From an uncultured Methylococcaceae bacterium (lineage in GTDB: Bacteria; Pseudomonadota; Gammaproteobacteria; Methylococcales; Methylomonadaceae), in assembly GCA_903944165.1 (NCBI GenBank), contig CAJAQT010000125.1:287-64286 (forward strand): a DNA stretch of 64,000 nucleotides, written 5' to 3'. The notes beneath the pieces were generated by a model. The model saw nothing but the letters and a program-made list of their open reading frames with translations. It made no database searches and had not been told where the DNA came from. Below are positions 8,214 to 54,436 of the stretch, in pieces; within the stretch, counting starts at the first letter, position 1, and each line of letters opens with the position of its first letter. The position numbers and the translations under genes were made by a program.

Positions 8214-8231
8214 ACCAGTGAGGATGCGCTA

Positions 8232-9437: not shown

Positions 9438-9443
9438 AAAGCC

Positions 9444-11285
9444 ATGCTGGATTTAAGAATCACCACAACAAAATCTAAGCCCCAAGCGAGCAATGATTTT
9501 TCTTTTAGAAAAACATTCTTATTGGGCTTTATGCTGTGTTGCATGACGCTATTAATAAGCCGCGCTTTTTATTTACAAGTTATTGAAAAAGATTTTCTTC
9601 AAGACCAAGGTGACGACAGACACGTTGACGATATTGTTATCCCTGCCTATCGCGGCATGATTAAAGACAGAAACGGAGCGCCCTTAGCCGTTAGTACGCC
9701 TGTAGAATCAATTGCTGTTAATCCAAGAGAACTCATCACTGACGATAAAAATAGACTCAAACAACTTGAAAAAGAATTTAGAAAAAAACAACAATTACTC
9801 AAGCTGTCTGAGACCGATAAAGCCCAAATATTAAACGATTATCGCAAAGAAAAATCGTTAACCATTAAAACTATCGAAAACCTTCTGCATTTACCCTCAG
9901 GAAAAATAACACAGTTATTAAATGAAAAGCCCTTACGCGCCTACGCTTATCTTGCTAGAAGCATCAACCCCGAATTAAGCGAAAATATTAAAGCGTTAAA
10001 ATTAACGGGGGTTTATTTTGAACGCGAATTTAAACGTTTCTACCCTACAGGCAGTGTATCAGCCCATCTTGTCGGCTTTACCGATATTGAAGAAAAAGGG
10101 CAGGGCGGCATGGAGTTAGGCTATGAAAATGTCCTTAAAGGTATCTCTGGCAGTAAGCGTGTAATTAAAGATGGTCATCGCCAAATTATTGCTGATGTAG
10201 AAAATATAAAAGAACCTGTTAACGGCAAAGATATTGTTCTAAGCATCGATCAACGTATTCAATACCTTGCCTATAAAGAATTACAGCGCGGTGTGACTGA
10301 AAATCAAGCAAAAACTGGCACTGTCGTTGTCCTTGATGCCAAAAATGGCGAAATATTGGCTGTTGCCAATCAACCTTCATTTAACCCTAATACGCGAAAA
10401 GAAATAAAAGAATATTTTTATCGCAATCGAGCATTAACAGAAGTGTTTGAGCCAGGCTCAACAGTAAAGCCCTTTGTTGTTGCCGCGGCTTTAGATGGTG
10501 GCTATATCAAACCCACCGATGTCTTCGAGACTCATGGTAGCTTTCAAATTGGTCGTCACCAAGTAAAAGACGTGCACAATTACGGCACCCTTGACTTAAC
10601 CCATGTGATCAAAAAATCTAGCAATATTGCCGTCAGCCAAATGGCCTTAAAAATGCCGCCAGATTATTTTTGGAACATCTATCACCGTCTTGGCTTTGGC
10701 GTTTCTGCCGGCACTGGTTTTGTGGGTGAAGCCAATGGCATTTTATTAGATTATCATCGCTGGCATGATTTTGAGCGCGCCACCCTATCTTTTGGTTATG
10801 GCATGAATGCCTCGGCATTACAGCTTGCTCGCTCCTACACTGCGCTTGCTGATGATGGCATATTGCATTCTGTAAGCTTACTCAAACGCGATGAAGATAT
10901 TGATCAACAACGTGTCTTCAGCACAAAAACAGCTCGACGAGTTCGTGCCATGATGGAGCACGTTATCATGGAAGACGGCACCGCGTATGAAGCCAGAGTA
11001 GATGGCTACAGCGTTGCCGGCAAAACGGGTACGGTTAAAAAATCAGGGGGTAAAAGCGGCTATCTTGATAAAAAATATTTCTCAGTATTTGCAGGCTTTG
11101 CCCCTGCTAAAAATCCTCGTTTGATTATTGTCGTCATGATTGATGAGCCCTCTGCTGGTCAATATTACGGCGGCTTAGTGTCGGCTCCTGTTTTTTCTAA
11201 ACTCATGTCGGGTGCGTTACGCATTCTTAATATCGCGCCTGACAAAGAAGAAACCATGCCTATTTTACTCACGCAAGCACCTTAA
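9444..11285 (+). CDS. ftsI: Penicillin-binding protein 3 (septal transpeptidase)
   Basis: RGMIKDRNG, EPGSTVK (SxxK), KSSN (SxN), KTGT motifs. Confidence 0.96.
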   Translation: MLDLRITTTKSKPQASNDFSFRKTFLLGFMLCCMTLLISRAFYLQVIEKDFLQDQGDDRHVDDIVIPAYRGMIKDRNGAPLAVSTPVESIAVNPRELITDDKNRLKQLEKEFRKKQQLLKLSETDKAQILNDYRKEKSLTIKTIENLLHLPSGKITQLLNEKPLRAYAYLARSINPELSENIKALKLTGVYFEREFKRFYPTGSVSAHLVGFTDIEEKGQGGMELGYENVLKGISGSKRVIKDGHRQIIADVENIKEPVNGKDIVLSIDQRIQYLAYKELQRGVTENQAKTGTVVVLDAKNGEILAVANQPSFNPNTRKEIKEYFYRNRALTEVFEPGSTVKPFVVAAALDGGYIKPTDVFETHGSFQIGRHQVKDVHNYGTLDLTHVIKKSSNIAVSQMALKMPPDYFWNIYHRLGFGVSAGTGFVGEANGILLDYHRWHDFERATLSFGYGMNASALQLARSYTALADDGILHSVSLLKRDEDIDQQRVFSTKTARRVRAMMEHVIMEDGTAYEARVDGYSVAGKTGTVKKSGGKSGYLDKKYFSVFAGFAPAKNPRLIIVVMIDEPSAGQYYGGLVSAPVFSKLMSGALRILNIAPDKEETMPILLTQAP

Positions 11286-11302: not shown

Positions 11303-12805
11303 ATGCAACTCGCCACGCTATTTCAAAAATTATCTGCACTTGAGCCCCAATCTCAAGCTTATAACAGATTAAATATCAATAACTTAAGTATTGATAGCCG
11401 CACCATTAGTCATCATGATGTGTTTATTGCCTTAACAGGCAGCCAACAGCACGGCTTGTATTTCGCCGAACAAGCCATTAACAAAGGTGCTGCTGCGATT
11501 TTATATGATCCAGAGCAAGATGGTCGGCACTTAGCCAGCACCATTAGCGCAATTCCTACAATTGCAGTGCCAAACTTAAGCACACAACTTGGCCTTATCG
11601 CCGCCAATTTTTATGGCTGGCCAACAGACGCATTAACGCTAGTTGGCATAACGGGCACCAATGGTAAAACTTCGTGTACACAATTCTTACATCAACTAAC
11701 CGAACATAGCGGCGTTATTGGCACCTTAGGCTGGGGTGATCGACAGCAACTTCATGCTACGCAGCACACCACACCTGATGCCTTAACATTACAAAAAATA
11801 TTTTCTAGCTTTAAAAACAATCACCAACATACCGTATTTATGGAAGTGTCCTCACACGCCATAAGTCAACACAGAACCAGCGGCCTTCCCTTTGAAGGCA
11901 TCGTCTTTACAAATATCACCCGTGATCATTTAGATTACCACTTAACGTTTTCAGCCTATTGCAACGCAAAACTACAATTGCTTGATACGCCTGACCTACG
12001 CTTTGTGGTGATGAATCTTGATGATGAACTCGCCTCCAAAATTATTTCACGCACTCCCGCAACGGCAATACTTTGGAGCACCAGTTGCACGGGTAAAACC
12101 CTGCACACTGCAACCAGTCTCGTTGCAACACAGCTTCGCCAAACCCCGACTGGCATAGCATTTGACGTTCATCTTGATCAACAGCAACACCATCTTAGTT
12201 TACCGTTGTATGGCTTATTTAATGTGAGCAACTGTCTGCAAGTATTAGCCGTATTGCTCGCAAAAGGCATGAGTTTTTCCGTAGCCTGTCAACAGCTGAA
12301 GAACTTACAACCCATTCAGGGGCGCATGGAGCGTTTGGGCGGACACGATCAGCCCCATATTGTCATTGATTATGCCCATACCCCCGACGCCTTAGAAAAA
12401 GCATTAAGTAGTTTACGCGCACATTGTCAGCACCGGCTTTGGCTGGTCTTCGGTTGTGGCGGCAATCGCGATCAAGGCAAACGTCCATTAATGGGCGAAT
12501 GCGCTTCACGCTTTGCTGATCAAATCATCCTTACCGATGACAATCCCAGAGATGAGGCGAGTGAACAGATTATTGCCGACATTATGACTGGCTGCGAGCA
12601 CCAAAAAACACGTGTTATCGCTAATAGAGAACTCGCCATTCATTATGCAATTGCTCATGCCAGCCCCAAAGATTGCATTTTAATCGCGGGCAAAGGGCAT
12701 GAAGATTACCAAGAGAGTGCCGGTGAACGCTTTCCCTTTAGCGATAAAGAATGCGCACTGCACGCCTTAACCCAAACCTATCCAGCATTGGGCCAAATAA
12801 CATGA
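11303..12805 (+). CDS. murE: UDP-MurNAc-Ala-Glu:meso-DAP ligase
   Basis: GITGTNGKT, TTPD, MEVSSH, DYAHTPD, DNPR (DAP-specific), AGKGHE. Confidence 0.96.
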   Translation: MQLATLFQKLSALEPQSQAYNRLNINNLSIDSRTISHHDVFIALTGSQQHGLYFAEQAINKGAAAILYDPEQDGRHLASTISAIPTIAVPNLSTQLGLIAANFYGWPTDALTLVGITGTNGKTSCTQFLHQLTEHSGVIGTLGWGDRQQLHATQHTTPDALTLQKIFSSFKNNHQHTVFMEVSSHAISQHRTSGLPFEGIVFTNITRDHLDYHLTFSAYCNAKLQLLDTPDLRFVVMNLDDELASKIISRTPATAILWSTSCTGKTLHTATSLVATQLRQTPTGIAFDVHLDQQQHHLSLPLYGLFNVSNCLQVLAVLLAKGMSFSVACQQLKNLQPIQGRMERLGGHDQPHIVIDYAHTPDALEKALSSLRAHCQHRLWLVFGCGGNRDQGKRPLMGECASRFADQIILTDDNPRDEASEQIIADIMTGCEHQKTRVIANRELAIHYAIAHASPKDCILIAGKGHEDYQESAGERFPFSDKECALHALTQTYPALGQIT

Positions 12806-14172
12806 CTCTTTATTTAAGTGCTTTAGCTAAACAACTCTCTGGGCAACGGGTGGGTGCAGATGTGGCGATCACCTCAGTCAGCATTGATTCAAGATCACTG
12901 CAAGCAGGTGATGTGTATATTGCAATTAAAGGACACCAACACGATGGCCATGCCTTTTTAGCTGAAACAGAACGCGCCGGTGCCTGCGCTGCGATCATCG
13001 AGGCAAGCTCAACTACGCAACTCACTATTCCTCACCTAATCGTAACTGACACGAGGATTGCACTGGCACAACTGGCCACACTTTGGCGACAACACTTGCC
13101 TGCCTGTACCGTCATTGGGATAACGGGTAGCAATGGTAAAACCACCGTCAAGGAAATGACTGCGGCGGTCATGGGCGACGCCAGCACCGTACTGTATACC
13201 CAAGGTAATTTAAACAACGCAATTGGCGTTCCCCTTACTTTATTACGCCTAACTCAGGCACACCATTACGCAGTAATTGAAATGGGCGCTAATCACCCAG
13301 GTGAAATTGCTTTTGTTAATACCTGCGCTCACGCCGATATTGTCATCATAACTAATGCCGCTAACGCACACTTAGCAGGCTTTGGCGATGTCGCTGGCGT
13401 TGCAAAAGCGAAAGGTGAAATTATTAGTACGCTTAACCCAGAGGGCATCGTCATTTTAAATCGTGATGATGCTTATTTTGATTACTGGCAAACGCTAGCA
13501 GGTAGTAGAAAAATACTGTCTTTTGGGCTACATAATCAAGCGGATATAAGAGCAGAGCACATTCAAAGCAGCATTCAGGCGCAGCAATTTGTGACGTCTT
13601 TTGAGCTCATTAGTGCAGGGCAGCGCTATCACTGCACCCTCGCGTTAGCAGGTCAACATAACGTCTTAAACGCCTTAGCCGCGTGCGCCGTAGGTCTGGC
13701 GGCAGGTATACCCATCGCAACATTAATAACTCGATTAAAAAAAGTTAATTCAGTTACTGGGCGCTTACAAGCTTTAGTTGGCAGGCAAGGGCAATTAATC
13801 ATTGATGATACTTATAACGCGAATGCCGATTCCTTAGCTGCCGCACTAAATGTTTTACAACAATGCCCAGGACAACCTTGGCTGATTCTCGGTGCCTTTG
13901 GCGAATTAGGGCCAGCAAGTGCTGAACTTCATTATGAGCTGGGTTTACAGATAAAAAAGAGTGGGGTAATGCGCTTATTTGCAGTGGGTGACGATTGTCA
14001 ACACACGGTAGCAGCCTTTGGCGAAGGCGCCCAGTATTGTCACAACCACGCTGAACTCATGACGCAATTAAACAACGCCTTAACTGGTCAAGAAACACTT
14101 TTAATTAAAGGCTCGCGATCACAAAAGATGGAACACATCGTGGCATCACTCGTTGAAAACTTTAGGACATAA
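12802..14172 (+). CDS. murF: UDP-MurNAc-tripeptide:D-Ala-D-Ala ligase
   Basis: GITGSNGKTT, NNAIGVP, EMGANH, DDTYNAN, KGSR; ATG at 12802 overlaps the murE stop (ATGA). Confidence 0.95.
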   Translation: MTLYLSALAKQLSGQRVGADVAITSVSIDSRSLQAGDVYIAIKGHQHDGHAFLAETERAGACAAIIEASSTTQLTIPHLIVTDTRIALAQLATLWRQHLPACTVIGITGSNGKTTVKEMTAAVMGDASTVLYTQGNLNNAIGVPLTLLRLTQAHHYAVIEMGANHPGEIAFVNTCAHADIVIITNAANAHLAGFGDVAGVAKAKGEIISTLNPEGIVILNRDDAYFDYWQTLAGSRKILSFGLHNQADIRAEHIQSSIQAQQFVTSFELISAGQRYHCTLALAGQHNVLNALAACAVGLAAGIPIATLITRLKKVNSVTGRLQALVGRQGQLIIDDTYNANADSLAAALNVLQQCPGQPWLILGAFGELGPASAELHYELGLQIKKSGVMRLFAVGDDCQHTVAAFGEGAQYCHNHAELMTQLNNALTGQETLLIKGSRSQKMEHIVASLVENFRT

Positions 14173-40906: not shown

Positions 40907-41521
40907 TTATTGTTTAGAATAAATAGTAATCTTTTCATTAATCTTAGCTATTAAAGCATCAAAGCCTTCATGTTGCAAAATGTTGGTGTATTCAGAGCGC
41001 TTTACAGCCAGATCACTTACCCCATTAGCAATAATATTGATGACCTTCCAATGACCCGCTATTTCTTTGAGATTGTAGTCAAATTTAACTGCTTTATCGT
41101 TAGGAATGACTAAATGAGAATGTACAACAACTCCACCTCTTGCCGTTTCCTCCTCCGAATCAAAAACAAAACTTTCACCTGAATATTCTTTAAAATTATG
41201 AGCATAAGAAGCAACGCTATACTTACTAAAGGTAGCCACCAAGATCTCTTGTTGCTCTTTTGACAAACCTTCCCATTCTTTACCCACCACAATACGCACT
41301 ATCTTAGTTAAATCATGACTATCTGAAACAGGTGCATAAAGTGCCTCATAACGTCCCGAATATCCAATCTGCTTACCCTTTTTCATAGCAGCAAGCAATT
41401 GCGACTGAAAGCCCTCAACAACTTGACGAGCAGTTAGCGGTTCTTGAGCCGAAACAGCAAAAACAACCAAACATAATACACATAAAACCAAATACTTAAT
41501 TTTAGTTAAAAACATCATCAT
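40907..41521 (-). CDS. hpnM: Hopanoid transport periplasmic protein HpnM (MlaC/Ttg2D family)
   Basis: Signal peptide, W.VINIIANGVSDLAVKRSEY; next to hpnH. Confidence 0.85.
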   Translation of the reverse strand: MMMFLTKIKYLVLCVLCLVVFAVSAQEPLTARQVVEGFQSQLLAAMKKGKQIGYSGRYEALYAPVSDSHDLTKIVRIVVGKEWEGLSKEQQEILVATFSKYSVASYAHNFKEYSGESFVFDSEEETARGGVVVHSHLVIPNDKAVKFDYNLKEIAGHWKVINIIANGVSDLAVKRSEYTNILQHEGFDALIAKINEKITIYSKQ

Positions 41522-41529
41522 TCCTTAAA

Positions 41530-42654
41530 TTAAATCGATTCACTCTGTAATTTTTCAATGACCTCGACGTGAACAGGAATTTTGGATAAAGATGATGACG
41601 ATACGGCCTCTTCAAAACATGATTCAGGCACCATCTCACCCTCAGTTTTAATACCTTTTAAAGATAACAACAAGGCTTTAAAGGGGTTTTTTAACATATC
41701 CTCAACGGCAGTAGCTTCATAGCCACAATGTGCCATACAACTTGCACATTTTGGGTTACTATTATTTCCATATTTTTCCCAAGGAGTCGTTTCTAATAAC
41801 TCATTAAAACTTGCCGCATTACCTTCATCGGCTAATAAATAACACGGTTTTTGCCACCCAAATACATTTCGCGTTGGATTACCCCAAGGCGTACACTCAT
41901 AATTTTGATTACCTGCCAAAAAATCAAGATAAAGCGAGGAATGATTTAAACTCCATTTACGTTGCTTGCCAATCTTAAAAATACCTCTAAATAACTCCTT
42001 AACATCACGACCTTTAATAAATACATCTTGTTGCGGTGCGCGCTCATAACTAAAGCCTGGCGCAATAGTGACACCTTCAACACCCAAATCGGTAACATAA
42101 TCTAAAAACTCAGCAACTTCATGGGCATTTTCGCCTTGAAATAATGTGCAATTTACTGTCACCCTAAAGCCTTTAGCTAAGGCCAGTTTTATGGCTTCCA
42201 CGGCACGCTCAAAAACCCCCTCCTGACATACAGAAGTGTCGTGCCGCTCTTGCATGCCATCCAAATGAATTGAAAACGTTAAATAAGGAGAAGGCTTATA
42301 ATCATCAATACGTTTTTTCAACAACAATGCGTTAGTACACAAATACACGTATTTTTTTCTAGCAATAATACCGGCAACAATTTGCGGCATCTCTTTATGA
42401 ATTAATGGCTCACCTCCAGGAATAGAAACCATTGGCGCATTACATTCATCAACAGCCTGCATACATTCCTCAAAAGATAATCTTTTATCCAAAATATCAT
42501 CTGGATAATCAATTTTACCGCATCCTGCACAAGCTAAATTACAGCGAAAAAGAGGCTCTAACATCAACACCAAGGGATATTTTTTAACGCCTTTTAGTTT
42601 TTGTTTAATCAGATAACTGCCAACAGTCAATTGTTGACGCAAAGGAACACCCAT
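41530..42654 (-). CDS. hpnH: Adenosyl-hopene transferase (radical SAM)
   Basis: PLVLMLEPLFRCNLACAGC (CxxxCxxC), CTPWGNPT, QKPCYLL, CMAHCGYE; start MGVP at 42654 after a GGAGG RBS. Confidence 0.96.
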   Translation of the reverse strand: MGVPLRQQLTVGSYLIKQKLKGVKKYPLVLMLEPLFRCNLACAGCGKIDYPDDILDKRLSFEECMQAVDECNAPMVSIPGGEPLIHKEMPQIVAGIIARKKYVYLCTNALLLKKRIDDYKPSPYLTFSIHLDGMQERHDTSVCQEGVFERAVEAIKLALAKGFRVTVNCTLFQGENAHEVAEFLDYVTDLGVEGVTIAPGFSYERAPQQDVFIKGRDVKELFRGIFKIGKQRKWSLNHSSLYLDFLAGNQNYECTPWGNPTRNVFGWQKPCYLLADEGNAASFNELLETTPWEKYGNNSNPKCASCMAHCGYEATAVEDMLKNPFKALLLSLKGIKTEGEMVPESCFEEAVSSSSLSKIPVHVEVIEKLQSESI

Positions 42655-43116
42655 AAAACCTCCAAAATGATTATTTATCGACAAAGATAAACTGAGAATA
42701 AAATTATTCATAATAATAAGCTTGTAGCAATAAAACAACAACAAATTACCACGTCACAACAACAAATAAATAGGCTTTACGCTTGGGCAACTCATAAAAC
42801 ACGATAAACTGATAAAAATATTACAAAAATCACCTCAGCTAGAGGACATAACAATGCCATGTGCAGCGCAATGAATCAAACACGCCAATTGCCCAATTAA
42901 TTCCCTTAAATACAACAAGACCAACACCAGTAAATATTAAGATCCCTAGCGCACTCGACAGACCTTCGCTTAAGTAATGCAGCGCATTTACCTAAAAATC
43001 AACATTTCTAAACTTACCCATAAATTAGCTTTAAAACAACATTGCTTTGCAAAATACCAACAAACAGTCTATTATTTAGGGAAATAATCAAGACAATTTA
43101 AGTAAATATCGAGCGT

Positions 43117-44235
43117 ATGGAAAAGTTTGCAATTGACTTAGAAAATCCAAAATCACTAAATCAACTTTCAGATAACGATTTTCAATTAGCCTTATTGGAA
43201 GGCGTATCCAGAACCTTTGCCTTAACCATTCCTCAACTACCCCCTGAATTATTCGCTCCGGTAGCAAATGCATATTTGCTATGCAGGATTGTCGACACAA
43301 TTGAAGACGAAGTGTCATTATCAGCGCGTCAAAAAGAGTATTTTTGCACCGAATTTACTACGATTGTCACGACGGGTGAAAACACGGAATTATTTGCCAT
43401 AGAACTTGCTCCTTTATTATCAAATCAAACAATCGCAGCAGAACATACGCTGATACATGTTTTACCACGCGTAATTCAAATCACCCATACTTTTGCGCCC
43501 GAACAGATTGCAGCCTTATCAATATGCGTAGCAACAATGGCAAAAGGCATGCCTGCTTATCAATCAATGGAATTAAAAAAGGGCTTAGCAAGCCTTAAAG
43601 ACCTTGATTTATATTGCTACTACGTCGCTGGGTGCGTTGGCGAAATGCTAACTGAATTATTCTGTTTTTACTCCTCAGACATTGCCAAACACCGCAATCA
43701 AATGCTGGCGCTTTCAGTATCTTTTGGACAGGGCTTACAAATGACGAATATTTTAAAAGATATTGCAGATGATGCTCAACGTGGTGTTTGTTGGCTGCCA
43801 CAAGACATCTTTACTGAAGTTGGCTTTGATCTAGGATCTCCAGAGTTTGATAAAAACTCAGCTCAATACCGCGCTGGCGTAAAAAAGTTAATTGCCATAG
43901 CGCAGGGTCACTTAAGCAACGCGCTAAAGTACACGCAACTATTACCAAAAAATGAACCTGGAATTCGTAATTTCTGCCTATGGGCCGTAGGCATGGCTAT
44001 TTTGACTCTTAGAAATGTACAAAAAAACACAACAAGTAAAGCAGAAACGCCAATCAAAATTAGCCGAGATGATGTTAAAAAAACCATTTTTATCACAAAC
44101 TTATTCAACAAAAACAATACTATGCTGGATTTGATTTTTAATTTAGCAAGCTTGGGCTTAACATCATCCAAAAAATCAGCCCAACCTATGTCAACTCAAC
44201 CCAATTTTACAAAGTTTCTACATTTAAAAAAATAA
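43117..44235 (+). CDS. sqs: Squalene synthase (single-enzyme head-to-head prenyltransferase)
   Basis: VSRTFAL, YLLCRIVDTIED, YCYYVAGCVG, GLQMTNILKD. Confidence 0.85.
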   Translation: MEKFAIDLENPKSLNQLSDNDFQLALLEGVSRTFALTIPQLPPELFAPVANAYLLCRIVDTIEDEVSLSARQKEYFCTEFTTIVTTGENTELFAIELAPLLSNQTIAAEHTLIHVLPRVIQITHTFAPEQIAALSICVATMAKGMPAYQSMELKKGLASLKDLDLYCYYVAGCVGEMLTELFCFYSSDIAKHRNQMLALSVSFGQGLQMTNILKDIADDAQRGVCWLPQDIFTEVGFDLGSPEFDKNSAQYRAGVKKLIAIAQGHLSNALKYTQLLPKNEPGIRNFCLWAVGMAILTLRNVQKNTTSKAETPIKISRDDVKKTIFITNLFNKNNTMLDLIFNLASLGLTSSKKSAQPMSTQPNFTKFLHLKK

Positions 44236-44274
44236 GAAGCCAGCATAAATCAACTATTTTTTTAAGGACTCATT

Positions 44275-46242
44275 ATGTTTACTGATGCCAATCAACATTC
44301 TAATGTACGCTTCACCGCAAGCGCATCCGCTGCAATCCTATCAAATGCTAATAACTTAGATAATGCTATTGAGAGCGCAAAAAATCAGTTACTACAGCTT
44401 CAAGACAAGCAAGGATATTGGTTATTTGAGCTCGAAGCGGACTGCACCATCCCTGCAGAATACATTCTAATGATGCATTATCTTGATGATATTGATCATA
44501 CTTTACAGGCAAAAATGGCGACCTACTTAAGGTCTCGTCAATCAGAAGATGGCAGTTACCCTTTATTTACAGGCGGACAAGGTGACATTAGCTGCAGCGT
44601 TAAGGTTTATTATGCATTGAAATTATCAGGTGACGACAGCAATGCGCCACACATGCAAATACTTAGAAAATTTATTCTTAAGCAAGGTGGCGCGGCAAAA
44701 GCCAATGTGTTTACTCGGATTGCATTAGCTATTTTTGGTCAATTGCCTTGGCGCGGCGTACCCTATATTCCTGTTGAAATCATGCTCCTACCCTCATGGT
44801 TTCCCTTCCATTTAGAAAAAGTATCTTATTGGTCAAGAACGGTAATGGTACCTCTTTTTATTTTGTGCACCTTGCAAGCTAAGGCTAAAAACCCATTAAA
44901 TATTAATGTTCTGGAGCTTTTTGTCACGCACCCAGATAAAGAACAACATTATTTCCCCAACAGAACATTATTAAATAAAATTTTCTTAGGTCTTGATAAC
45001 GTTGGACGAACACTCGAACCCTTCATTCCTTCAGCCATTAGAAACAAAGCACTTAAAAAAGCCGAGTTGTGGTTTGTAGAAAGGCTTAATGGCGAAGATG
45101 GCTTAGGGGGGATTTTTCCAGCAATGGTAAATGCCTATGAATCCTTGCTTATATTAGGCTACGATAAAGATCATGAATTAGTGATCACTGCGCGTAAAGC
45201 AATCGAAAAACTATTAGTTATCAATGAAGACGACGCGTATTGCCAGCCCTGTTTATCACCTATTTGGGATACCGCACTCACCGCATTAGCATTACAAGAA
45301 GTTGACAAGCTTGCACCTCAAGCACCTATTCAACACAGCCTAGAATTAGCTTACCAATGGCTAAAGTCTAAACAACTCACTGACGAACCAGGAGATTGGC
45401 AAGTAAAAAATCCTAACTTAGCAGGTGGTGGCTGGGCGTTTCAATTTGCTAACCCTCATTATCCAGATGTAGATGATACTGCGGTTGTAGCCTTTGCAAT
45501 GGCTGATTCTTGCTTAACCAATTTAAACGAATCAATTGCTAGAGCAACTACATGGATTGCTGGCATGCAATCTGATAATGGCGGTTATGGTGCATTTGAT
45601 ATCAACAATACCTGTTACTATTTAAATGAAATTCCTTTTGCAGACCATGGCGCCTTACTTGACCCACCCACTGCTGATGTCAGCGCGCGATGCGCTATGT
45701 TGTTAGCTAAAATCTGCACCACCAATGACAAATATTTACCTGAATTAACACGCACACTTAACTATTTGCGCAAAGAGCAAGAAGAAGATGGCTCGTGGTT
45801 TGGGCGCTGGGGCACAAACTATATTTATGGTACATGGTCGGTACTTATTGCTTTAGAACAAACTAACACACCCACGACAGATTCAGTTTTTATCAAGGCT
45901 GCTCAATGGTTAAAAAGTATTCAACGCCCTGATGGCGGCTGGGGAGAAGATAACTTCAGCTATCATGACACTACGACTAAAGGACGTTACCACTTCAGCA
46001 CCTCCTTCCAAACCGCCTGGGCCGTGTTGGGCTTAATTGCCGCTGGCGAAGCACATTCAGCAGAAGTAAAGGCAGGTATAGAATTTATTTTACGTCACCA
46101 ACAAACCGATGGCTTTTGGAATGATAAATGTTTTACTGCACCCGGCTTCCCAAAGGTTTTTTATTTGAAATATCATGGCTATGATAAGTTCTTTCCATTA
46201 TGGGCTTTAGCTAGATATCGTAATGAGATTCGTCAATCGTGA
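44275..46242 (+). CDS. shc: Squalene-hopene cyclase
   Basis: DVDDTA (DxDDTA hopene-type motif), QW repeats, WFGRWGTNYIYGT, FTAPGFPKVFYLKY. Confidence 0.98.
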   Translation: MFTDANQHSNVRFTASASAAILSNANNLDNAIESAKNQLLQLQDKQGYWLFELEADCTIPAEYILMMHYLDDIDHTLQAKMATYLRSRQSEDGSYPLFTGGQGDISCSVKVYYALKLSGDDSNAPHMQILRKFILKQGGAAKANVFTRIALAIFGQLPWRGVPYIPVEIMLLPSWFPFHLEKVSYWSRTVMVPLFILCTLQAKAKNPLNINVLELFVTHPDKEQHYFPNRTLLNKIFLGLDNVGRTLEPFIPSAIRNKALKKAELWFVERLNGEDGLGGIFPAMVNAYESLLILGYDKDHELVITARKAIEKLLVINEDDAYCQPCLSPIWDTALTALALQEVDKLAPQAPIQHSLELAYQWLKSKQLTDEPGDWQVKNPNLAGGGWAFQFANPHYPDVDDTAVVAFAMADSCLTNLNESIARATTWIAGMQSDNGGYGAFDINNTCYYLNEIPFADHGALLDPPTADVSARCAMLLAKICTTNDKYLPELTRTLNYLRKEQEEDGSWFGRWGTNYIYGTWSVLIALEQTNTPTTDSVFIKAAQWLKSIQRPDGGWGEDNFSYHDTTTKGRYHFSTSFQTAWAVLGLIAAGEAHSAEVKAGIEFILRHQQTDGFWNDKCFTAPGFPKVFYLKYHGYDKFFPLWALARYRNEIRQS

Positions 46243-46946
46243 TTACTGGCATTATCGTTGCGCTACCAGATGAGCTAACAACGCTTACATCCAAACGTAT
46301 TGACCGCGGTCATTGCGTTTTTATTGCAGATAAAATACTTGTAGCCTACTCTGGCGCAGGCGCAGCAAATGCTCAACTTTCTGCTGCATTATTAATCAGT
46401 AAAGGCGCAAGTCAATTAATTAGTTGGGGGTGTGCGGCCGCGTTAGATGATGCATTAAAGCCAGGTGATCTTGTGATAGCAGAGCGCTTAATTACTCGAG
46501 ATGATGAATATATCGAAGTAAATCATCGTTGGCATACCCATGCACACAGCTTATTAAGCCCGTTACTTACAACATTTATCGGTGACTTAACTGAAAGCGA
46601 GAGCATTGTTTCATCTAACAAAGAAAAACAGCATCTACACACAATAACCCAAGCCATTGCTCTTGACATGGAAAGTGCGGCAATAGCAAAAGCCGCAAAA
46701 GAAAAAAATCTACCTTTTTTAACGATTCGCGTCATTGTTGACCCTGCCAACATGAACATGCCCGCAGCCATAAGCTACGCCATTGATGATCATGGCGAAA
46801 TCAGCCTAAAAAAGCTAGCTCTCTTTATCGTCTTACATCCTAATGAATTAATTGATTTAATCCGTTTGGGTTTTTATTTTAATGCAGCAAAATCATCACT
46901 TAAACAGATTGCTAAAAAAATTGACTCTTTAAGTCATTTTCAATGA
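46239..46946 (+). CDS. hpnG: Adenosylhopane nucleosidase (PNP/UDP phosphorylase family)
   Basis: ISWGCAAAL, ALDMESAAIA, RVIVD; GTG start overlaps the shc stop. Confidence 0.85.
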   Translation: MITGIIVALPDELTTLTSKRIDRGHCVFIADKILVAYSGAGAANAQLSAALLISKGASQLISWGCAAALDDALKPGDLVIAERLITRDDEYIEVNHRWHTHAHSLLSPLLTTFIGDLTESESIVSSNKEKQHLHTITQAIALDMESAAIAKAAKEKNLPFLTIRVIVDPANMNMPAAISYAIDDHGEISLKKLALFIVLHPNELIDLIRLGFYFNAAKSSLKQIAKKIDSLSHFQ

Positions 46947-47004
46947 ATCATAAGCCATAATTTCTATTCTTTAAACCAGACCTATTAGCTATCAAAGATA
47001 TACC

Positions 47005-48393
47005 ATGACTTTCAGTATCTCCGAGCTTTTCAATAAGCATAATTCAGAAAAATTTGATCTACACGAAGAGCACCTTAATAACCAAATGGTTAGGGTGTTA
47101 AAAACAATAGGCTATGATCGCTGTTATGATAGAGCCATTGGACAATATTTGTATGATCAACAAGGAAATGAATATTTAGATTTATTGAGTGGCTTTGGTG
47201 TATTCGCCATTGGACGCAATCATCCAACCGTGATAGCGGCATTAAAAGAAACGCTCACCTTAGAATTACCTAATCTAGTACAGCTAGACGTATCGGTACT
47301 GAGCGGCTTACTTGCTAAAGAATTACTTAAAACAACACCTGAAAACATTACTAAAATGTTTTTTTGTAATTCTGGAACTGAAGCCGTTGAAGCCGCTATA
47401 AAATTTGCGCGTTACACCACAAAAAGAGAAAAAATTGTCTTTTGTGAGCACGGCTATCATGGCTTAACTATGGGCGCATTATCTTTAAATGGTGAACATA
47501 TTTTTAGAGAAGGCTTTGGTCCATTGCTACCAGGATGTAGTGCCGTGCCCTTTAATGATCTTGCTGCATTAGAAGCAGCGCTTGAAAATAAAGATGTGGC
47601 TGCGTTTATCGTTGAACCTATTCAAGGAAAAGGAGTAAATCTTCCTGATGAAAACTACCTCCCCGAAGTAGAGCGGTTATGCAAAAAATACGGCACCTTG
47701 TTTGTTGCGGATGAAGTTCAAACAGGTTTAGGCCGAACAGGAAAGTTTTGGGCAATTGATCATTGGCATGTAAAACCCGACATGATTTGTATGGCAAAAG
47801 CCTTATCTGGTGGTTTTGTGCCTATTGGCGGTGTCGCGATCACTCAAAAAATAATGGATACTGTTTACAATCGCATGGATAGAGCTGTTGTGCACGGGTC
47901 AACGTTCTCAAAAAACAATATGGCTATGGCCGCAGGTTTAGCCACCTTGCATGTTTTAGAAGAAGAGAAGTTAGTTGAAAACAGCGCGAAAATAGGTAAC
48001 GAGATTATTCAAAGTCTGCATGCTTTAGCGGGCAAATATGAATTCCTAAAAGAGGTTCGCGGCAAAGGCATGATGATTGCGATAGAATTTCAAGCACCTA
48101 GAAGCATGACATTAAAAGCCGCGTGGGCAATGCTTGAAGCAGCAAATAAAGGATTATTTTGCCAAATGATCACTATTCCATTATTTAAAGATCATCATAT
48201 TCTTACTCAAGTTGCTGGGCATGGCATGAATGTCGTTAAATTACTCCCCCCGCTCAATTTAACCACAAAAGATCGCGACCATATTGTCACTGCCATGGAT
48301 AAAACCATACACGAAACCCATCAAATACCTGGCTCTATCTGGGATCTAGGAAAAAATCTCGCCAGCCACGCACTGAAAAACAAAAAAGGATAA
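47005..48393 (+). CDS. hpnO: Aminobacteriohopanetriol aminotransferase (class III, PLP)
   Basis: LDLLSGFGVF, NSGTEAVE, EPIQGKG, DEVQTGLGRTG, AKALSGG; hopanoid context. Confidence 0.9.
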   Translation: MTFSISELFNKHNSEKFDLHEEHLNNQMVRVLKTIGYDRCYDRAIGQYLYDQQGNEYLDLLSGFGVFAIGRNHPTVIAALKETLTLELPNLVQLDVSVLSGLLAKELLKTTPENITKMFFCNSGTEAVEAAIKFARYTTKREKIVFCEHGYHGLTMGALSLNGEHIFREGFGPLLPGCSAVPFNDLAALEAALENKDVAAFIVEPIQGKGVNLPDENYLPEVERLCKKYGTLFVADEVQTGLGRTGKFWAIDHWHVKPDMICMAKALSGGFVPIGGVAITQKIMDTVYNRMDRAVVHGSTFSKNNMAMAAGLATLHVLEEEKLVENSAKIGNEIIQSLHALAGKYEFLKEVRGKGMMIAIEFQAPRSMTLKAAWAMLEAANKGLFCQMITIPLFKDHHILTQVAGHGMNVVKLLPPLNLTTKDRDHIVTAMDKTIHETHQIPGSIWDLGKNLASHALKNKKG

Positions 48394-48396
48394 GTT

Positions 48397-48753
48397 ATGC
48401 GCACTCAACATCTCTTACTCAGCTTATTGTTAATGCTTGCTTGCCAAAAAAATCTTCATGCTCATGCCGTCGTCACCGAACATTCTTTTGCTTCCACCAA
48501 AATCCACGCCAATCATGAAAACCAAGTAAATCTTGATTTTAATTCAAAAATTGAAATAGGCTTATCTGAAATTTTTTTAGTCAGCAAAGGCGATACGTAT
48601 ACATTATTACCTATTTCTAAAGGTAAAAAACAAGGGCAAATGTTAATCCATATACCTGCATTAGCATTAGGTGAATACGCTATTAAGCTTAAAGTGTTTG
48701 CTGCTGATGGTCATTTAACTGAAGACGTTATTTATTTTTCCGTTATTCCTTAG
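48397..48753 (+). CDS. copC: CopC-family periplasmic copper-binding protein
   Basis: Signal ending LHA leaves His1 (HAVV); C-terminal DGH motif; no Met-rich Cu(I) loop. Confidence 0.8.
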   Translation: MRTQHLLLSLLLMLACQKNLHAHAVVTEHSFASTKIHANHENQVNLDFNSKIEIGLSEIFLVSKGDTYTLLPISKGKKQGQMLIHIPALALGEYAIKLKVFAADGHLTEDVIYFSVIP

Positions 48754-48762
48754 GATATTTGC

Positions 48763-50433
48763 ATGGCCGGCATTGCTGATTTTCTTGATTCCTTAATAGG
48801 TGGCTTTTCACTTATTTGCTTTGCACTCGCAATAGGTAGCTTATTTTGGGGATTATTTATTTTACAACCTTGGCAAAAAGAGACTGACTTACCGCCAATG
48901 TTGCTAGATAAAACCCTATACTTACTGCGCTTAGGCGGCGTTGCATTGGCTTGCACCCAAATTTTTAAAATAATTTTAAAAATTTGGTTAATGAGCGCTG
49001 TTCTTAATCACTCACCATTTCCTGAATTTGCAGACACAACGCAATTTATCGGAGGCGTAGTACGCACTTTATTAACCGTTATTTTTACAGCTTATTGCAC
49101 TTTAGTTTTAGCAAAAAAACCGTTTTCCAAAGATTACTGGTACGGGGCGGCATGGCTAGCCATGCCCATGATTATTTCAGGCGCATGGCTAGTTCATGCT
49201 GCGGGGCGTTTTGATAATCCTTATATTCTTATGGGGCTTACCGTTATTCACCAACTTGGCGCTGCGGCATGGGTCGGTGGCGTTTTCCATTTAGTTCATA
49301 TTTGGGTATTAACAAAACAACAGACAATCCCGTCCACACTTTGGCCCAAATTATTAAAACGCTTCTCTCTTTTTGGCTTAAGTTCGGTGGGGGTCATTTT
49401 ATTAACTGGCTTACCAATGGGCTTGCAGTATATTGACAGCTGGAATGGATTTATTGGTACGGGTTATGGAAACTTATTAACTGTAAAAATCATTCTTCTC
49501 GGACTGGCGTTAGGTCTTGCGTGGCTCAATAAATCAACTGTACACGTATATTTTTTAACGGGTAATGATCACGGTTTAAACAATCGCTTACCTTATTATC
49601 TTGAAGCAGAAGCGTTTGTCTTAATTACTTTATTATTTACCGCAGCAAGTTTGGCATCACAACCGCCTGCAATTGATATTCCCCATCTGACTGCGACATG
49701 GCAAGAGGTCGTCACGATGTTTGCTCCTCAATGGCCAAGCATAACCTCACCGTCACACCAAGATTTAATTGCTGGCGAAGCGGGTCGTGTAGCTATTATT
49801 GGCCAAACACCTTCTGAAGCAGCAACGGCTTGGTCAAATTATAATCATAATATCGCCGGTATTTTTCTCACTATCATGAGTTTTTTTGCCATGCTTTCTT
49901 ATGTTAAGCAACGACCACGTAATACCTCAGCAGCGCTTGAAACGTTCTTCTTAGGGATTACACGATATTGGCCAATGGGATTTGTTACACTTGGCGTTTT
50001 CTTATTTTTCCGCAGCGATGCAGAAACGTGGCCTCTTGGACCCATTGGTTTTTGGGAAAGCACCTTTAATAATGGCGAAGTTTTACAACATCGAATTGCA
50101 ACATTACTGGTCTTTTCATTAGGCGTAATTGAGCTATTTGCTCGACTACCCAAATATCAAAACAGTCAACTCCCTTATTTTTTTCCTATCTTAGCTGCTT
50201 TTGGCGGACTCATGTTATTAACCCATTCCCATATTGGATTTCAGGCTAAAAGCGCATTTTTAATACAAGTAGGTCATACCTTAATGGGTATTTTTTCTCT
50301 GATTCTAGCCTGTGGGCGCTGGTTGGAATTGAAATTAGATCGACCAGGTAAGGATATTGCTGGCTTCATTTCTGTAGCCGCCCTGTTTCAAATTGGACTT
50401 ATTTTAATGTTCTATCGTGAACCCCTTTATTAA
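48763..50433 (+). CDS. copD: CopD-family inner-membrane protein with an additional His-rich multi-TM C-terminal domain
   Basis: HAAG and HQLGAAAWVGG CopD signatures; 556 aa with extra TM helices carrying NHNIAG, QHRIA, THSH, GHT. Confidence 0.72.
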   Translation: MAGIADFLDSLIGGFSLICFALAIGSLFWGLFILQPWQKETDLPPMLLDKTLYLLRLGGVALACTQIFKIILKIWLMSAVLNHSPFPEFADTTQFIGGVVRTLLTVIFTAYCTLVLAKKPFSKDYWYGAAWLAMPMIISGAWLVHAAGRFDNPYILMGLTVIHQLGAAAWVGGVFHLVHIWVLTKQQTIPSTLWPKLLKRFSLFGLSSVGVILLTGLPMGLQYIDSWNGFIGTGYGNLLTVKIILLGLALGLAWLNKSTVHVYFLTGNDHGLNNRLPYYLEAEAFVLITLLFTAASLASQPPAIDIPHLTATWQEVVTMFAPQWPSITSPSHQDLIAGEAGRVAIIGQTPSEAATAWSNYNHNIAGIFLTIMSFFAMLSYVKQRPRNTSAALETFFLGITRYWPMGFVTLGVFLFFRSDAETWPLGPIGFWESTFNNGEVLQHRIATLLVFSLGVIELFARLPKYQNSQLPYFFPILAAFGGLMLLTHSHIGFQAKSAFLIQVGHTLMGIFSLILACGRWLELKLDRPGKDIAGFISVAALFQIGLILMFYREPLY

Positions 50434-50448
50434 TCAGCAGATGTCAAT

Positions 50449-52311
50449 ATGAACCCATCATCGAACTTTTTTTTATTAAACGACATACATTCGCCTGCCG
50501 ATGTAAGAAAGTTACCTAAGGATTTGCTAAAGCCATTAGCAGAAGAACTTAGAGAGTTTTTAACGCAATCCGTGAGTATTTCAGGTGGGCATTTTTCTGC
50601 TGGTTTAGGTACCGTTGAACTAACCGTTGCGCTACATTACGTGTTCAATACCCCGTCAGATCAATTAGTTTGGGATGTAGGTCATCAAGCATACCCCCAT
50701 AAAATTCTTACTGGTCGTAAGGACAAAATGACCACAATTCGCTCGCAAGGCGGTATTTGTGCCTTTCCTAATCGCTCAGAAAGCGAATACGATGCATTTG
50801 GCGTGGGGCATTCAAGCACCTCAATTAGCGCGGCCCTGGGCATGGCAATAGCCTCTTCACTTCAAGGTCAAGATAAACAGATGGTCGCAATTATTGGCGA
50901 TGGCAGCATCACCGGCGGCATGGCGTTTGAAGCGATGAACCATGCGGGTGCTATTGATGCAAATCTGCTAGTCATACTAAATGATAATGATATGTCAATT
51001 TCACCCAACGTGGGTGCAATGAATAATTATCTATCCAAGATATTATCAAGCCGCTTATATTCTTCGATGCGCGAGGAGAGTAAAAAAGCCTTAAGTAAAA
51101 TGCCGACAGTTTGGGAATTGGCAAAACGAACAGAAGAACATATTAAAGGAATGGTGATTCCGGGTACCTTATTTGAAGAACTAGGTTTTAACTACATTGG
51201 TCCAATTGATGGACATGATTTAGATGTGTTAGTGGAAACCTTGGAAAATCTTAAGCACATTAGCGGCCCTCGCTTCCTTCATATCGTTACCAAAAAAGGT
51301 AAAGGCTACGCACCTGCAGAAAAAGACCCACTGGCTTATCACGGCGTTCCAGCCTTTGACCCTAGTAAAGAATGCTTGCCAAAATCAACGCCGTCACCAC
51401 ACCCTACGTACACAGAAGTATTTGGTAACTGGTTATGTGATATGGCTCAACAAGATGAACGCTTATTAGGTATTACACCTGCTATGCGTGAAGGCTCAGG
51501 GCTGGTTAAATTTTCTCAACGCTTTCCATCGCGTTATTTTGATGTTGCCATTGCTGAACAGCACGCCGTTACACTCGCGGCAGGTCAGGCATGCCAAGGC
51601 GCAAAACCAGTGGTCGCTATTTATTCAACATTTTTACAACGCGGTTATGACCAATTAATTCATGACGTTGCTTTGCAAGACTTAGATGTATTATTTGCGC
51701 TTGACCGCGCTGGACTGGTAGGCCCTGATGGACCAACGCATGCGGGCAGCTTTGATTACAGCTTCCTTGCCTGTATCCCCAATATGGTTATTATGGCACC
51801 TGCTGATGAAAACGAATGTCGACGCATGCTTACCACAGGCTTTCTGTATAAAGGTCCAGCGTCTGTCCGCTATCCACGCGGCAAAGGGCCAGGTAGTGTT
51901 GTCGAAACAGAATTAAACACTCTTGAAATAGGTAAAGCAGAGATTCGTTTTACGGGCAAACGAATTGCCATTCTTGCCTGGGGCAGCATGGTCACACCAG
52001 GTCTTGAAGTTGGCAAACAACTGAATGCAACCGTGGTAAATATGCGCTTTGTAAAACCTCTTGATGAAGCAATGATTTTACAGCTGGCAAAAACTCATGA
52101 AATTTTTGTCACTTTAGAAGAAAACGTCTTATCGGGCGGCGCGGGTAGTGCAATTAACTTATTCTTACAAAAACAACGTATTTTAATGCCAGTTTTAAAT
52201 ATTGGTCTGCCCGACGCGTTCATCGAGCAAGGCACACGCGAGCAACTTTTAACGCAATGCGGATTAGATATACAAGGTATATTTGATCAAATCGAAACAT
52301 TTTGCGCATAA
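50449..52311 (+). CDS. dxs: 1-deoxy-D-xylulose-5-phosphate synthase
   Basis: [47 protein letters not shown]. Confidence 0.98.
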
Positions 52312-52344
52312 AAACTTTTTACCGCCCAACCTTCAGTTAAATTT

Positions 52345-52860
52345 ATGCACAGAATAAAAAATAAAATTCGTGAAATACCTGACTTTCCAAAACCAGGCAT
52401 CTTATTTAAAGATATTACCCCTTTAGTTAAAGATCCTGCCACACTGAAACTAGCCATTCACCAATTAATTCACCCCTTTTTAGGTGCCCCTATAACCGCC
52501 GTTGCGGGCATGGAGGCAAGGGGATTTATTTTTGGCAGCTTAGTTGCCTGGGAGTTAAACCTGCCTTTTATTCCATTACGCAAACCAGGAAAGCTTCCTT
52601 ACAATGTGCATAGTGTGGCCTATGACTTAGAATACGGCTCAACTATGCTTGAAGCGCATATTGACGCGGTAGACAGTACCGACCAGGTACTCTTAATCGA
52701 CGATTTATTAGCCACGGGTGGTACCGCTAAAGCAAGTTGCGAATTAATTGAAAAATTAGGTGCAACTATAGTGGGATGCGCTTTTGTGATCGAACTAGAC
52801 GCATTGGCAGGAAGAAAAAAATTATCAAATTATACTGTTCATTCTTTAATACGTGACTAA
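52345..52860 (+). CDS. apt: Adenine phosphoribosyltransferase
   Basis: PDFPKPGILFKDITP, EARGFIFG, RKPGKLP, LIDDLLATGGT. Confidence 0.97.
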   Translation: MHRIKNKIREIPDFPKPGILFKDITPLVKDPATLKLAIHQLIHPFLGAPITAVAGMEARGFIFGSLVAWELNLPFIPLRKPGKLPYNVHSVAYDLEYGSTMLEAHIDAVDSTDQVLLIDDLLATGGTAKASCELIEKLGATIVGCAFVIELDALAGRKKLSNYTVHSLIRD

Positions 52861-52900
52861 ACTAAGCTTTGTAAAAACAATACTTGATAATGGGCTGGCC

Positions 52901-53092
52901 ATGACAAAGATAGACACCAATAAGCTAACCCAACATCAACAATGGATTGCTGTCTCCGCGTATTATAAAGCCCTCGCCAGAGGCTTTGCGCCAAATAATG
53001 ATCAACAGGATTGGTTAGAAGCTGAACAAGAATTTTCGCAATGCAGTGTTGTACCCAAAAAAATTGGCCTGATTACTCTGCGCCGGGCATAA
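52901..53092 (+). CDS. DUF2934-like small protein
   Basis: IAVSAYYKALARGF....DQQDWLEAE signature; start chosen at ATG 52901. Confidence 0.75.
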   Translation: MTKIDTNKLTQHQQWIAVSAYYKALARGFAPNNDQQDWLEAEQEFSQCSVVPKKIGLITLRRA

Positions 53093-53347
53093 ATTAAGTA
53101 AGCACTCAAGGCTCAGCATAATTTAGGCTCCACAACCAACTATAGACCTCTTTCCTAAAGAAAAGGAAATTGAGTTAGTTGATGTCACTATACAGCACGT
53201 TTTTAGAGCTGTAGATAAAACTCAATAGCAACCCTAAAAATGCCTAGATTTCAAAACCCCTTATGAGTTTTTTGAAGAACTCACTGGCATTGATGTTAAA
53301 AATTTATTGGGTTATGCATTTATAACGTGAATTCAGAACTGACTAAA

Positions 53348-54436
53348 TTACGATAATCTCCGATACTGATAATACGCAGCACACGCACCTTCTGCCGACA
53401 CCATCGTTGCGCCTAAAGCTGATTCTGGTGTGCATCGAGTAGCAAATTGTGGGCATTGCGGTGGTTTAATAAGCCCTTTTAACACTTGTCCACTTAAGCA
53501 CTCAACGGCTTCCTGAGTATTTATCATCATGACATCAAAATACGATTCAGCGTTCCATTGCTGAAATTCAGAACGCAAAGCTAAGCCGCTGCCAGCAATT
53601 TCCCCCAAACCACGCCAATTTCTATCCACAACCTCAAAAACTTGCATCATTAATTCTTGAGCAGGAAGATTGCCCCGCTCATTGACAGCACGTTGATAGC
53701 TATTCTCAACCGCATAATGCTTATTTTCTAATTGCCTAACGCAACATAAAATTCCTTTTACAATATCAACAGGTTCAAAACCAGTAATAACAATAGGAAT
53801 CTGGTAGCGCTGGGTAAGGGGAAGATATTCATGATAGCCCATGACCATACAAACATGTCCAGCACCTAAAAAACCATGAAGTTGATGATCTGGTGAAGAT
53901 AAAAGCACCTCCATTACAGGTGGTACCCGTACATGACTAATCAACAAAGAAAAGTTTGTAACCCCCAATAATTTCGCCTGATATGCTGCCATTGCAGTAG
54001 TTGGTGCAGTTGTTTCAAAACCGACACCAAAAAAAACAACATGCTTATCTGTGAATTGTTGTGCTAAATGAACCGCATCAATAGGTGAATAAACAATTCT
54101 TATGTCAGCCCCTTGAGCTTTTAAATGTAACAAATCAGTCTGTGAACCTGGCACTCTTAACATATCGCCAAACGTACAAAAAATAACATTAGGCTGGGCG
54201 GCAATACACAGTGCCTTATCAATATACGCTAAAGGTGTTACACAGACTGGACAGCCAGGCCCATGAATTAAGGTAATTAAATCAGGCAACAATTGATCAA
54301 GCGCATATTTAATGATGCTATGCGTTTGTCCACCACACACCTCCATAATATTCCAAGGGCGAGTAATACAGCATTTGATTGCGTCAATGTATTCGAACAC
54401 CTTGTCAGGATGTTGCAACGCCTTAAGATAATTCAT
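53348..54436 (-). CDS. hypD: Hydrogenase maturation protein HypD
   Basis: [37 protein letters not shown]; ATG at 54436 overlaps the end of hypC. Confidence 0.96.

Follow-up and report, generated by a model that had tools for sequence, protein, structure and literature searches.

Pairs made up of a periplasmic CopC domain and a membrane protein of the CopD family are known from several bacteria, including CopCD of Pseudomonas syringae, YobA-YebZ of Escherichia coli (the AZY operon) and YcnJ/YcnI of Bacillus subtilis. The CopC class holds Cu(II) through the N-terminal amine and imidazole plus a second histidine, similarly to histidine-brace copper proteins such as the lytic polysaccharide monooxygenases and the CuB site of PmoB; we know of no oxidative activity for any CopC. 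Here we describe a copC-copD pair of the same general build that lies among the genes for hopanoids, lipids that are prominent in bacterial membranes and serve as key geological biomarkers. The pair occurs in a 64,000-nucleotide stretch of DNA (the window; contig CAJAQT010000125.1, positions 287 to 64,286) from an uncultured Methylococcaceae bacterium (assembly GCA_903944165.1). Like the HpnA-HpnP/HpnR set (TIGR034xx), it is found in hopanoid operons, has a distribution linked to the squalene-hopene cyclase gene shc, and has hpnO, hpnG, hpnH, hpnN and hpnL among its neighbors. The Hpn family models do not cover CopC or CopD, and we found no paper linking either protein with hopanoids. What is new is a CopCD variant that, judged by sequence, appears set apart by its length, an extra domain, scores below family cut-offs, and a genomic and phyletic tie to hopanoids. 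The pattern points to a copper-dependent step in hopanoid biology, rather than to copper supply for methane oxidation.

The two genes are tightly packed into a string of co-oriented genes that runs from sqs to apt with intergenic gaps of 3-58 bp. copC (48397..48753, plus strand; 118 residues) begins 3 bp after hpnO (47005..48393, plus strand), copD (48763..50433, plus strand; 556 residues) follows copC after 9 bp, and dxs (50449..52311, plus strand) begins 15 bp 3' of copD. The ribosome-binding motifs of copC and copD, AAGGA and AGGA, sit inside or over the stop codon of the gene before. Promoter-like motifs (32, versus 28.3 in shuffled sequence) and terminator-like motifs (14 versus 11.4) show no excess in the region 42600-53400. 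An earlier note on this DNA had given the pair this order and these gaps, co-oriented with sqs-shc-hpnG, and had identified CopC with a mature N-terminal histidine and a DGH motif as its copper ligands; both descriptions hold, the first against the open reading frame (ORF) coordinates and the second against a PF04234 match (43.6 bits, cut-off 23.3) and the motifs themselves.

In CopC, a signal peptide spanning residues 1-22 and ending in NLHA is followed by HAVVTEH, so that His23 becomes His1 of the mature protein, and AADGH near the C-terminus supplies Asp104-Gly-His106. The sequence has neither a Met-rich Cu(I) loop nor a Met cluster. By these features CopC is predicted to be periplasmic and to belong to the single-site Cu(II) class, the N-terminal histidine and Asp-x-His serving as ligands. 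A sequence search of the PDB returned a single match, CopC of Methylosinus trichosporium OB3b (5ICU; E 1.5e-5), in which the DGH motifs align. The OB3b protein likewise has the mature N-terminal histidine and DGH and no Met-rich Cu(I) site, but the similarity is remote, and copC here follows hpnO while pmoA is on another contig. Measured against the NCBIfam equivalog for copper homeostasis CopC (NF033814), the protein reaches 37 bits where the cut-off is 95, a score that would place it in a divergent subfamily. The mature N-terminal histidine and DGH are kept in nearly all copC genes adjoining a long copD in the loci we examined across phyla. One variant locus, in a metagenome-assembled genome (MAG) of Acidobacteriota (L064), has a 332-residue ORF upstream of copD that comprises two tandem CopC-like domains, the first with DGH and the second with TTGGAW in that place.

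At 556 residues CopD is about twice the usual length, the classical protein having about 300 residues and 8 helices. It matches PF05425 (60.6 bits, cut-off 32.1) and falls below the NCBIfam equivalog NF033808 (61.9 bits, cut-off 195). Residues 1-297 (48763..49653, plus strand) form a canonical CopD domain of 8 transmembrane helices, with PF05425 matching at 196-297 and NF033808 at 27-302. A Pro-rich loop, probably periplasmic, spans residues 298-351 (49654..49815, plus strand) and holds PPxxD305, P322, P325 and P330, invariant columns in two alignments of 40 and 41 diverse long-CopD members. The remainder, residues 352-556 (49816..50433, plus strand), is a His-rich domain of six transmembrane helices with the motifs WSxYNH362, WPLG, QH443R, LLTH488SH490, H505, RWLELR and FYRE. 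In comparison with CopCD, YobA-YebZ and YcnJ, then, this CopD is distinguished by its length, 14 helices and His-rich C-terminal domain, and both partners score below their equivalog cut-offs. Unlike in YcnJ, CopC and CopD are separate proteins, and YebY, YcnI or PCuAC partners are lacking; a CopC-CopD fusion of the YcnJ type was ruled out by the separate ORFs.

Conservation within the long form spans both halves. Residues H145, H163, W170, G172, G236, K242, E283, D305, W403, P404, H443, P475, H488 and R519 are invariant in both alignments, and H362, H490 and H505 are invariant in one and near-invariant in the other; across members the motifs read HAxxRxD, HQxxAAxWxGG, GTxYG, PPxxD, WSxYNH, WPLG, QHR, LLTHSH, RWLELRL and FYRE. 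Classical CopDs of about 300 residues align solely to positions ~10-300 of the long-form profile, and four of them have H145, H163, W170, G172, T233, Y235, G236, K242, N256 and E283 in common with the long protein. R149, Q164, PPxxD305 and the entire C-terminal domain occur in the long form alone. When 1.84 billion representatives were searched exhaustively, relatives emerged in 124 clusters at E<1e-30, many of them ~530-555 residues long and aligned end to end, at identities down to ~27%.

A confident AlphaFold2 model of CopD, built from a long-CopD alignment (pLDDT 90.6, pTM 0.92), has 14 long helices, eight within residues 1-297 and six within 352-549, joined by the 298-351 loop, and the C-terminal domain is modelled at pLDDT mostly above 85. 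Combining the model helices with the positive-inside rule, and taking the loops AKKPFS and SYVKQRPRNTS as cytoplasmic, would place all seven conserved histidines at the periplasmic face or within ~10 residues of it, along with the Pro-rich and WPLG loops. Five of the seven lie in the C-terminal 6-helix domain. That domain gives no Pfam match even at E<=10 and no PDB match by sequence. Among its relatives, 8 of 10 members match LiaF-TM weakly, at best with E 2.4e-4, and one matches COX15 at E 0.04. A Foldseek search of the PDB returns no match at E<=0.001, and its best partial overlaps, with cytochrome bd subunits, ACIII ActF and PsrC at template-modelling scores of 0.3-0.4, amount to generic helical-bundle likeness. 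Two candidate origins were rejected: an internal CopD duplication, since hhalign of the C-terminal against the full profile gave a self-match alone, and a CopD-CtaG fusion, since the C-terminal half matches neither Caa3_CtaG nor any other Pfam family at E<=10.

The linkage seen in the window is conserved among relatives, the opposite of one outcome that the earlier note had listed as refuting its reading. A synteny survey, proposed in the earlier note as a check, drew 30 loci from 41 related genomes. These represent the genus itself, two more genera of its family and four other families of the order, with CopD identities of 45-100%. hpnO-copC-copD is contiguous in 26 of the 30 loci; the other four comprise two with hpnO-copD and no copC, one in which the contig ends before hpnO, and one with copC-copD and no hpnO (L026). 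Two genomes of the genus that lack copC beside copD carry a CopC gene elsewhere. The order sqs-shc-hpnG-hpnN-hpnO-copC-copD recurs in Methyloglobulus, Methylocaldum, Methylothermaceae and Methylohalobius. Most loci of the same family have dxs 3' of copD, and those of the other families do not; dxs also lies near copD at loci L050, L054, L092 and L116. Long CopD is absent from one sister genus and three other families that have shc and hpnO. In that sister genus of the family, hpnO is followed by dxs after a 20-bp gap with no copC or copD between them (locus L133, G023:C35, 2994-3014), and this empty site shows that copCD behaves as a discrete cassette.

Beyond Methylococcales the association recurs in arrangements of its own. 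A scan of one genome per species, using a 12-sequence alignment as query, found at least 597 loci encoding relatives. The best 80 of these fall in Methylococcales, Burkholderiales, other proteobacterial MAGs, Verrucomicrobiia, Binatia, Thermodesulfobacteriota, Rokubacteria/Methylomirabilota, Acidobacteriota, Acidimicrobiia, Acetobacteraceae (Rhodopila, Limobrevibacterium), Stellaceae and Elsteraceae. Hopanoid neighbors were sought by tblastn with the Hpn proteins of the window plus HpnI/J/K/L/N/B-M from one locus, which NCBIfam confirmed, and hpn genes were found in the flanks of 31 of 87 long-CopD loci. Where at least 8 kb was available on both sides, they stand beside 13 of 35 loci against ~1% expected, or ~35-fold above chance (p~1e-17). 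Seven distinct arrangements tie copC and long copD to these genes: hpnG-copC-copD in a Burkholderiales MAG (L035); hpnI-hpnJ-(hpnK)-hpnN-hpnL-copC-copD, flanked by shc/sqs and hpnB-M/hpnH/ispH/dxs, in three MAGs (L050, L054, L092; NCBIfam assignments); copC-copD-hpnN in three alphaproteobacteria (L094, L109, L116); copD-hpnL in ten Rokubacteria/Methylomirabilota loci; hpnH-copC-copD in an Acetobacteraceae genome (L114); shc-hpnH...copC-copD...hpnI-hpnJ in an Acidimicrobiia MAG (L101); and hpnN-copC-copD-dxs in Methylotuvimicrobium (L033). The commonest immediate neighbors outside Methylococcales are the hopanoid exporter gene hpnN and the flippase-like hpnL.

The phyletic pattern runs in the same direction. 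shc is present in 45 of 48 named long-CopD genomes of diverse phyla, the three exceptions being MAGs. An even sample of 400 Pseudomonadota contains shc in 47 genomes (12%) and long CopD in two, both of them shc-positive and one with its long CopD gene 8 kb from shc. Such rarity among shc-positive genomes (2 of 47) fits an accessory hopanoid function. Among 151 Acetobacteraceae, long CopD is found in 71 (47%) and shc in 135; shc is present in 70 of the 71 genomes with long CopD and in 65 of the 80 without (Fisher p=4e-4). Of the 41 relatives, 30 have long CopD and 37 have shc; all 30 carriers have shc, and the four shc-negative genomes lack long CopD. Short CopDs, by contrast, are widespread in genomes without hopanoids. 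The direction is uniform over the samples: genomes with long CopD nest inside the hopanoid producers, of which they make up only a minority. In this respect the pair differs from the HpnA-HpnP/HpnR set, being carried by 2 of 47 producers in the Pseudomonadota sample and by about half in Acetobacteraceae. Nor do the described CopCD, YobA-YebZ and YcnJ systems share its residence in hopanoid clusters and near-confinement to shc-positive genomes.

From these comparisons copC and copD appear to be genuine members of the hopanoid operon, forming a distinct hopanoid-associated CopC/CopD subfamily. Functional coupling of the pair to hopanoid biology is very likely, because its place beside hopanoid genes is kept among relatives and turns up elsewhere in independent arrangements. 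As to what the coupling consists of, the reading we tentatively prefer, while giving it a little less than an even chance, is a Cu(II) relay, running from CopC to long CopD and dedicated to hopanoids, that serves a hopanoid-dependent step in the periplasmic leaflet. CopC would take up Cu(II) in the periplasm and pass it to the histidine cluster of long CopD; copper bound at that cluster, or handed on from it, would serve a process that uses hopanoids as substrate or partner. This process would be located in the inner membrane's outer leaflet, en route to the exporter HpnN, and would most likely be an oxidative tailoring or handling step not yet tied to any gene; the pair would not be a general copper supply line for particulate methane monooxygenase (pMMO). 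Three observations need to be accounted for together: the conserved copper ligands of CopC with the conserved, probably periplasm-facing histidine cluster of CopD, the repeated embedding in hpn operons (especially beside hpnN and hpnL) and the scarcity of the pair where shc is lacking. All three are covered by a hopanoid-dependent function, whereas a plain importer explains the first only.

Several points weigh against such a relay. We know of no hopanoid reaction that needs copper, and the one concrete reaction compared phyletically, side-chain hydroxylation, failed, as set out below. About 60% of long-CopD loci, including those of Methylocystis and Granulibacter, have no hpn gene within 10 kb, and many hopanoid producers lack the copC/long-copD pair. 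The phyletic counts make no correction for common descent, and shc is frequent to begin with in several of the host lineages. Finally, the N-terminal half of CopD retains every residue typical of ordinary CopD importers, so plain import is possible.

This last point leads directly to the rival that survives best, ordinary copper uptake, in which CopCD imports copper into or across the inner membrane, a role put forward for YobA-YebZ of E. coli and YcnJ of B. subtilis, and is co-expressed with lipid genes so that acquisition scales with membrane biogenesis. It is a serious rival, if a somewhat unlikely one, and matches the first of the two options in the earlier note. Over its first 300 residues CopD is canonical and lacks none of the residues typical of the family, the copper ligands of CopC are intact, and CopCD has been described as a copper uptake system (PMC6189053, PMC6423226, PMC11923076). 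Moreover, these are the sole CopC and the sole true CopD of a 98%-complete genome with pmoA, and a methanotroph with pMMO would plausibly depend on the pair. What ordinary uptake leaves unexplained is the near-confinement of the long form to shc-positive genomes when ordinary short CopDs are common in genomes without hopanoids, the extra 6-helix domain with its five conserved histidines, and the location in hpn clusters, in seven arrangements, of organisms that are not methanotrophs.

That location also bears on the methanotroph-specific framing of the earlier note, which had set the gene pair in the context of pMMO and intracytoplasmic membranes. This framing does not stand, since the CopC/long-CopD pair lies in the hpn clusters of non-methanotrophs, among them Burkholderiales and other proteobacterial MAGs, Rokubacteria, an Acidimicrobiia MAG, Stellaceae, Elsteraceae and an Acetobacteraceae genome. 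Alphaproteobacterial methanotrophs have copC and copD in an extended pmo operon (PMC6189053). In Methylocystis sp. ATCC 49242 the long form is outside the pmo operon: the long pair lies among pyrroloquinoline quinone-dehydrogenase, SoxYZ and MOSC genes, away from any hpn or pmo gene. For Methylococcus capsulatus, the copper transcriptome mentions only a different CopC. The link between copCD and hopanoids is real, yet not methanotroph-specific. For methanotroph biology, the sole CopCD of this pMMO organism may not be a dedicated copper supply for pMMO.

A bolder proposal, which we consider unlikely, would make long CopD a membrane-bound copper enzyme in its own right, or else the platform that loads such an enzyme with copper; its periplasm-facing, CopC-charged histidine cluster would then oxidatively modify hopanoids that have reached the outer leaflet. 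The reaction might be one of the tailoring steps that still lack a gene, for example a desaturation, the formation of a lactone or carboxyl group, or some other oxidation of the side chain. If true, hopanoid biosynthesis would have its first copper-dependent step, and the CopD fold would gain a new catalytic role.

A role that does without copper is more doubtful again, and we regard it as improbable. Here the CopC-like beta-sandwich and the 14-helix protein would aid hopanoid flipping or hand-over to HpnN, the copper site being vestigial or regulatory. The prominence of hpnN and hpnL as the most frequent immediate neighbors outside Methylococcales would suit such a role, as would a C-terminal domain that matches no known family. 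Against it stands the retention, across phyla and at 27-100% identity, of His1 and Asp-x-His in CopC and of seven histidines in CopD, which argues for a metal site under selection.

The most specific proposal, and one with very little chance of being right, makes CopC-loaded long CopD the missing hydroxylase that adds the C-31 and C-30 hydroxyls, converting aminotriol to aminotetrol and aminopentol, and bacteriohopanetetrol (BHT) to bacteriohopanepentol (BHpentol) and bacteriohopanehexol (BHhexol). The chemistry of a His-brace copper site lends itself to C-H oxidation, and type I methanotrophs, which make aminopentol and aminotetrol, are among the carriers together with Methylocystis and Methylomirabilota/Rokubacteria. 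Rhodopila MAGs and other Rhodospirillales carry long CopD, and in R. globiformis, the type species of Rhodopila, pentol plus hexol amount to 19%. The genes for these side-chain hydroxylations are unassigned: a 2025 study of 54 Alphaproteobacteria describes the BHpentol and BHhexol genes as unknown, and its search around hpn clusters gave no candidate (PMC12583986, section 4.1.2.6). Methylocystis was the sole member of the Hyphomicrobiales to appear among the carriers, in agreement with the reported lack of pentols and hexols in that order (PMC12583986).

Acetobacteraceae tell against this assignment. Kozakia baliensis makes 29% pentol plus hexol bacteriohopanepolyols (PMC12583986, Table 3), yet its complete genome (G512) is shc-positive and has no long CopD. 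The same is true of a Komagataeibacter genome (G554), from a genus whose species make 24-50% pentol plus hexol, and Neoasaia, Endobacter and Entomobacter are likewise shc-positive without long CopD. More broadly, half of the shc-positive Acetobacteraceae lack long CopD, yet 9 of 10 tested members of the family make pentol or hexol lipids. Absence in this family was judged at E<=1e-60, and the genomes were named by exact look-up of their Shc proteins. Since Kozakia and Komagataeibacter make these lipids without long CopD, the pair is not the general side-chain hydroxylase, and a general C-30/C-31 hydroxylase role is rejected by the phyletic comparison. That reaction was the most obvious candidate under the second option of the earlier note, copper delivery to a hopanoid-modifying enzyme, which is itself a conceivable reading.

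Neutral hitch-hiking, in which a copCD cassette that inserted ancestrally between hpnO and dxs was kept by inheritance alone and has no functional tie to hopanoids, draws on the direct hpnO-dxs junction of the sister genus, which shows that the cassette can be absent, and on an arrangement within Methylococcales that could be vertically inherited, but is highly improbable given that other classes and phyla have independent linkages with gene orders of their own, and given the clustering with hpn genes far above chance, the nesting of the pair in shc-positive genomes, and gene orders and 30-45% identities outside Methylococcales that argue against recent transfer of one block.

The annotation 'CopD' splits in two, and the ~550-residue 'CopD family proteins' now labelled as copper resistance or uptake proteins (over 4000 clusters at E<=1e-50 in one search) should not pass as ordinary importers. 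Several hopanoid tailoring steps have no known genes, and the pair offers a concrete candidate for such a step or for a physiological link between copper and hopanoids.

Of the surrounding genes, sqs, for squalene synthase (43117..44235, plus strand; PF00494, SQS_PSY, 177 bits), opens the co-oriented string and is followed by shc (44275..46242, plus strand; TIGR01507, 880.6 bits, cut-off 431) and, with a 4-bp overlap, by a gene for an hpnG-like hopanoid-associated phosphorylase (46239..46946, plus strand) that matches PF01048 and falls slightly below the TIGR03468 cut-off (178.5 bits versus 187). The hpnO-like gene encodes a class-III aminotransferase of 462 residues (PF00202, 339 bits) and is named from its position and its orthologues, which at 67-97% identity occupy the equivalent place in Methylococcales hpn clusters; NCBIfam has no HpnO model against which to check the assignment. 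dxs encodes 620 residues (TIGR00204, 902 bits), and apt, for adenine phosphoribosyltransferase (52345..52860, plus strand; NF002636, 228 bits), closes the string. Divergent from it runs hpnH, for adenosyl-hopene transferase (41530..42744, minus strand; TIGR03470, 556 bits, cut-off 225). An hpnM-like (MlaC-like) gene lies 3' of hpnH (40907..41521, minus strand), found by tblastn with an HpnB-HpnM fusion from locus L054 at 47% identity over the HpnM part. That fusion is a single 600-residue ORF (L054, 12000-13802, minus strand) joining HpnB, a glycosyltransferase, to the MlaC-like HpnM, and it adjoins a gene for an MlaA-like lipoprotein directly 3' of copD. In the Acidimicrobiia MAG (L101), two proteins of ~510 residues with no NCBIfam match (7981-9504 and 11917-13458) flank copC-copD within the hpn cluster and are possible further partners.

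The source contig (C125) belongs to an assembly of 2.76 Mb, and the closest relatives of its CopD are in Methylovulum, Methylobacter or Methylococcaceae MAGs. The only other PF05425 match in this genome (C49:17730-18182) is a 150-residue protein of the CopD clan with a HemJ-like N-terminus (MLWLKAFHLIFMVTWFAGLFYLPRLFVYH). hpnG and hpnO are 58 bp apart here (46946-47005), where other Methylococcales have a 2.6-kb hpnN in between (for example, Methyloglobulus, L032, 5564-8182); an hpnN-like gene of this genome lies on contig C43, having moved out of the cluster in this genus. Homologues of hpnI, hpnJ, hpnK and hpnL were not found genome-wide, which would fit an organism that produces amino-bacteriohopanepolyols but no cyclitol ethers. 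The contig ends in copD or in the first ~180 bp of dxs in seven assemblies from this genus (L003, L004, L005, L008, L012, L021 and L022), which suggests a repeat or coverage problem at dxs in them; dxs is single-copy in the present genome. The dxs-apt pair is also found 3' of copD in Methyloglobulus (L032), and the apt product may salvage the adenine that HpnG releases.

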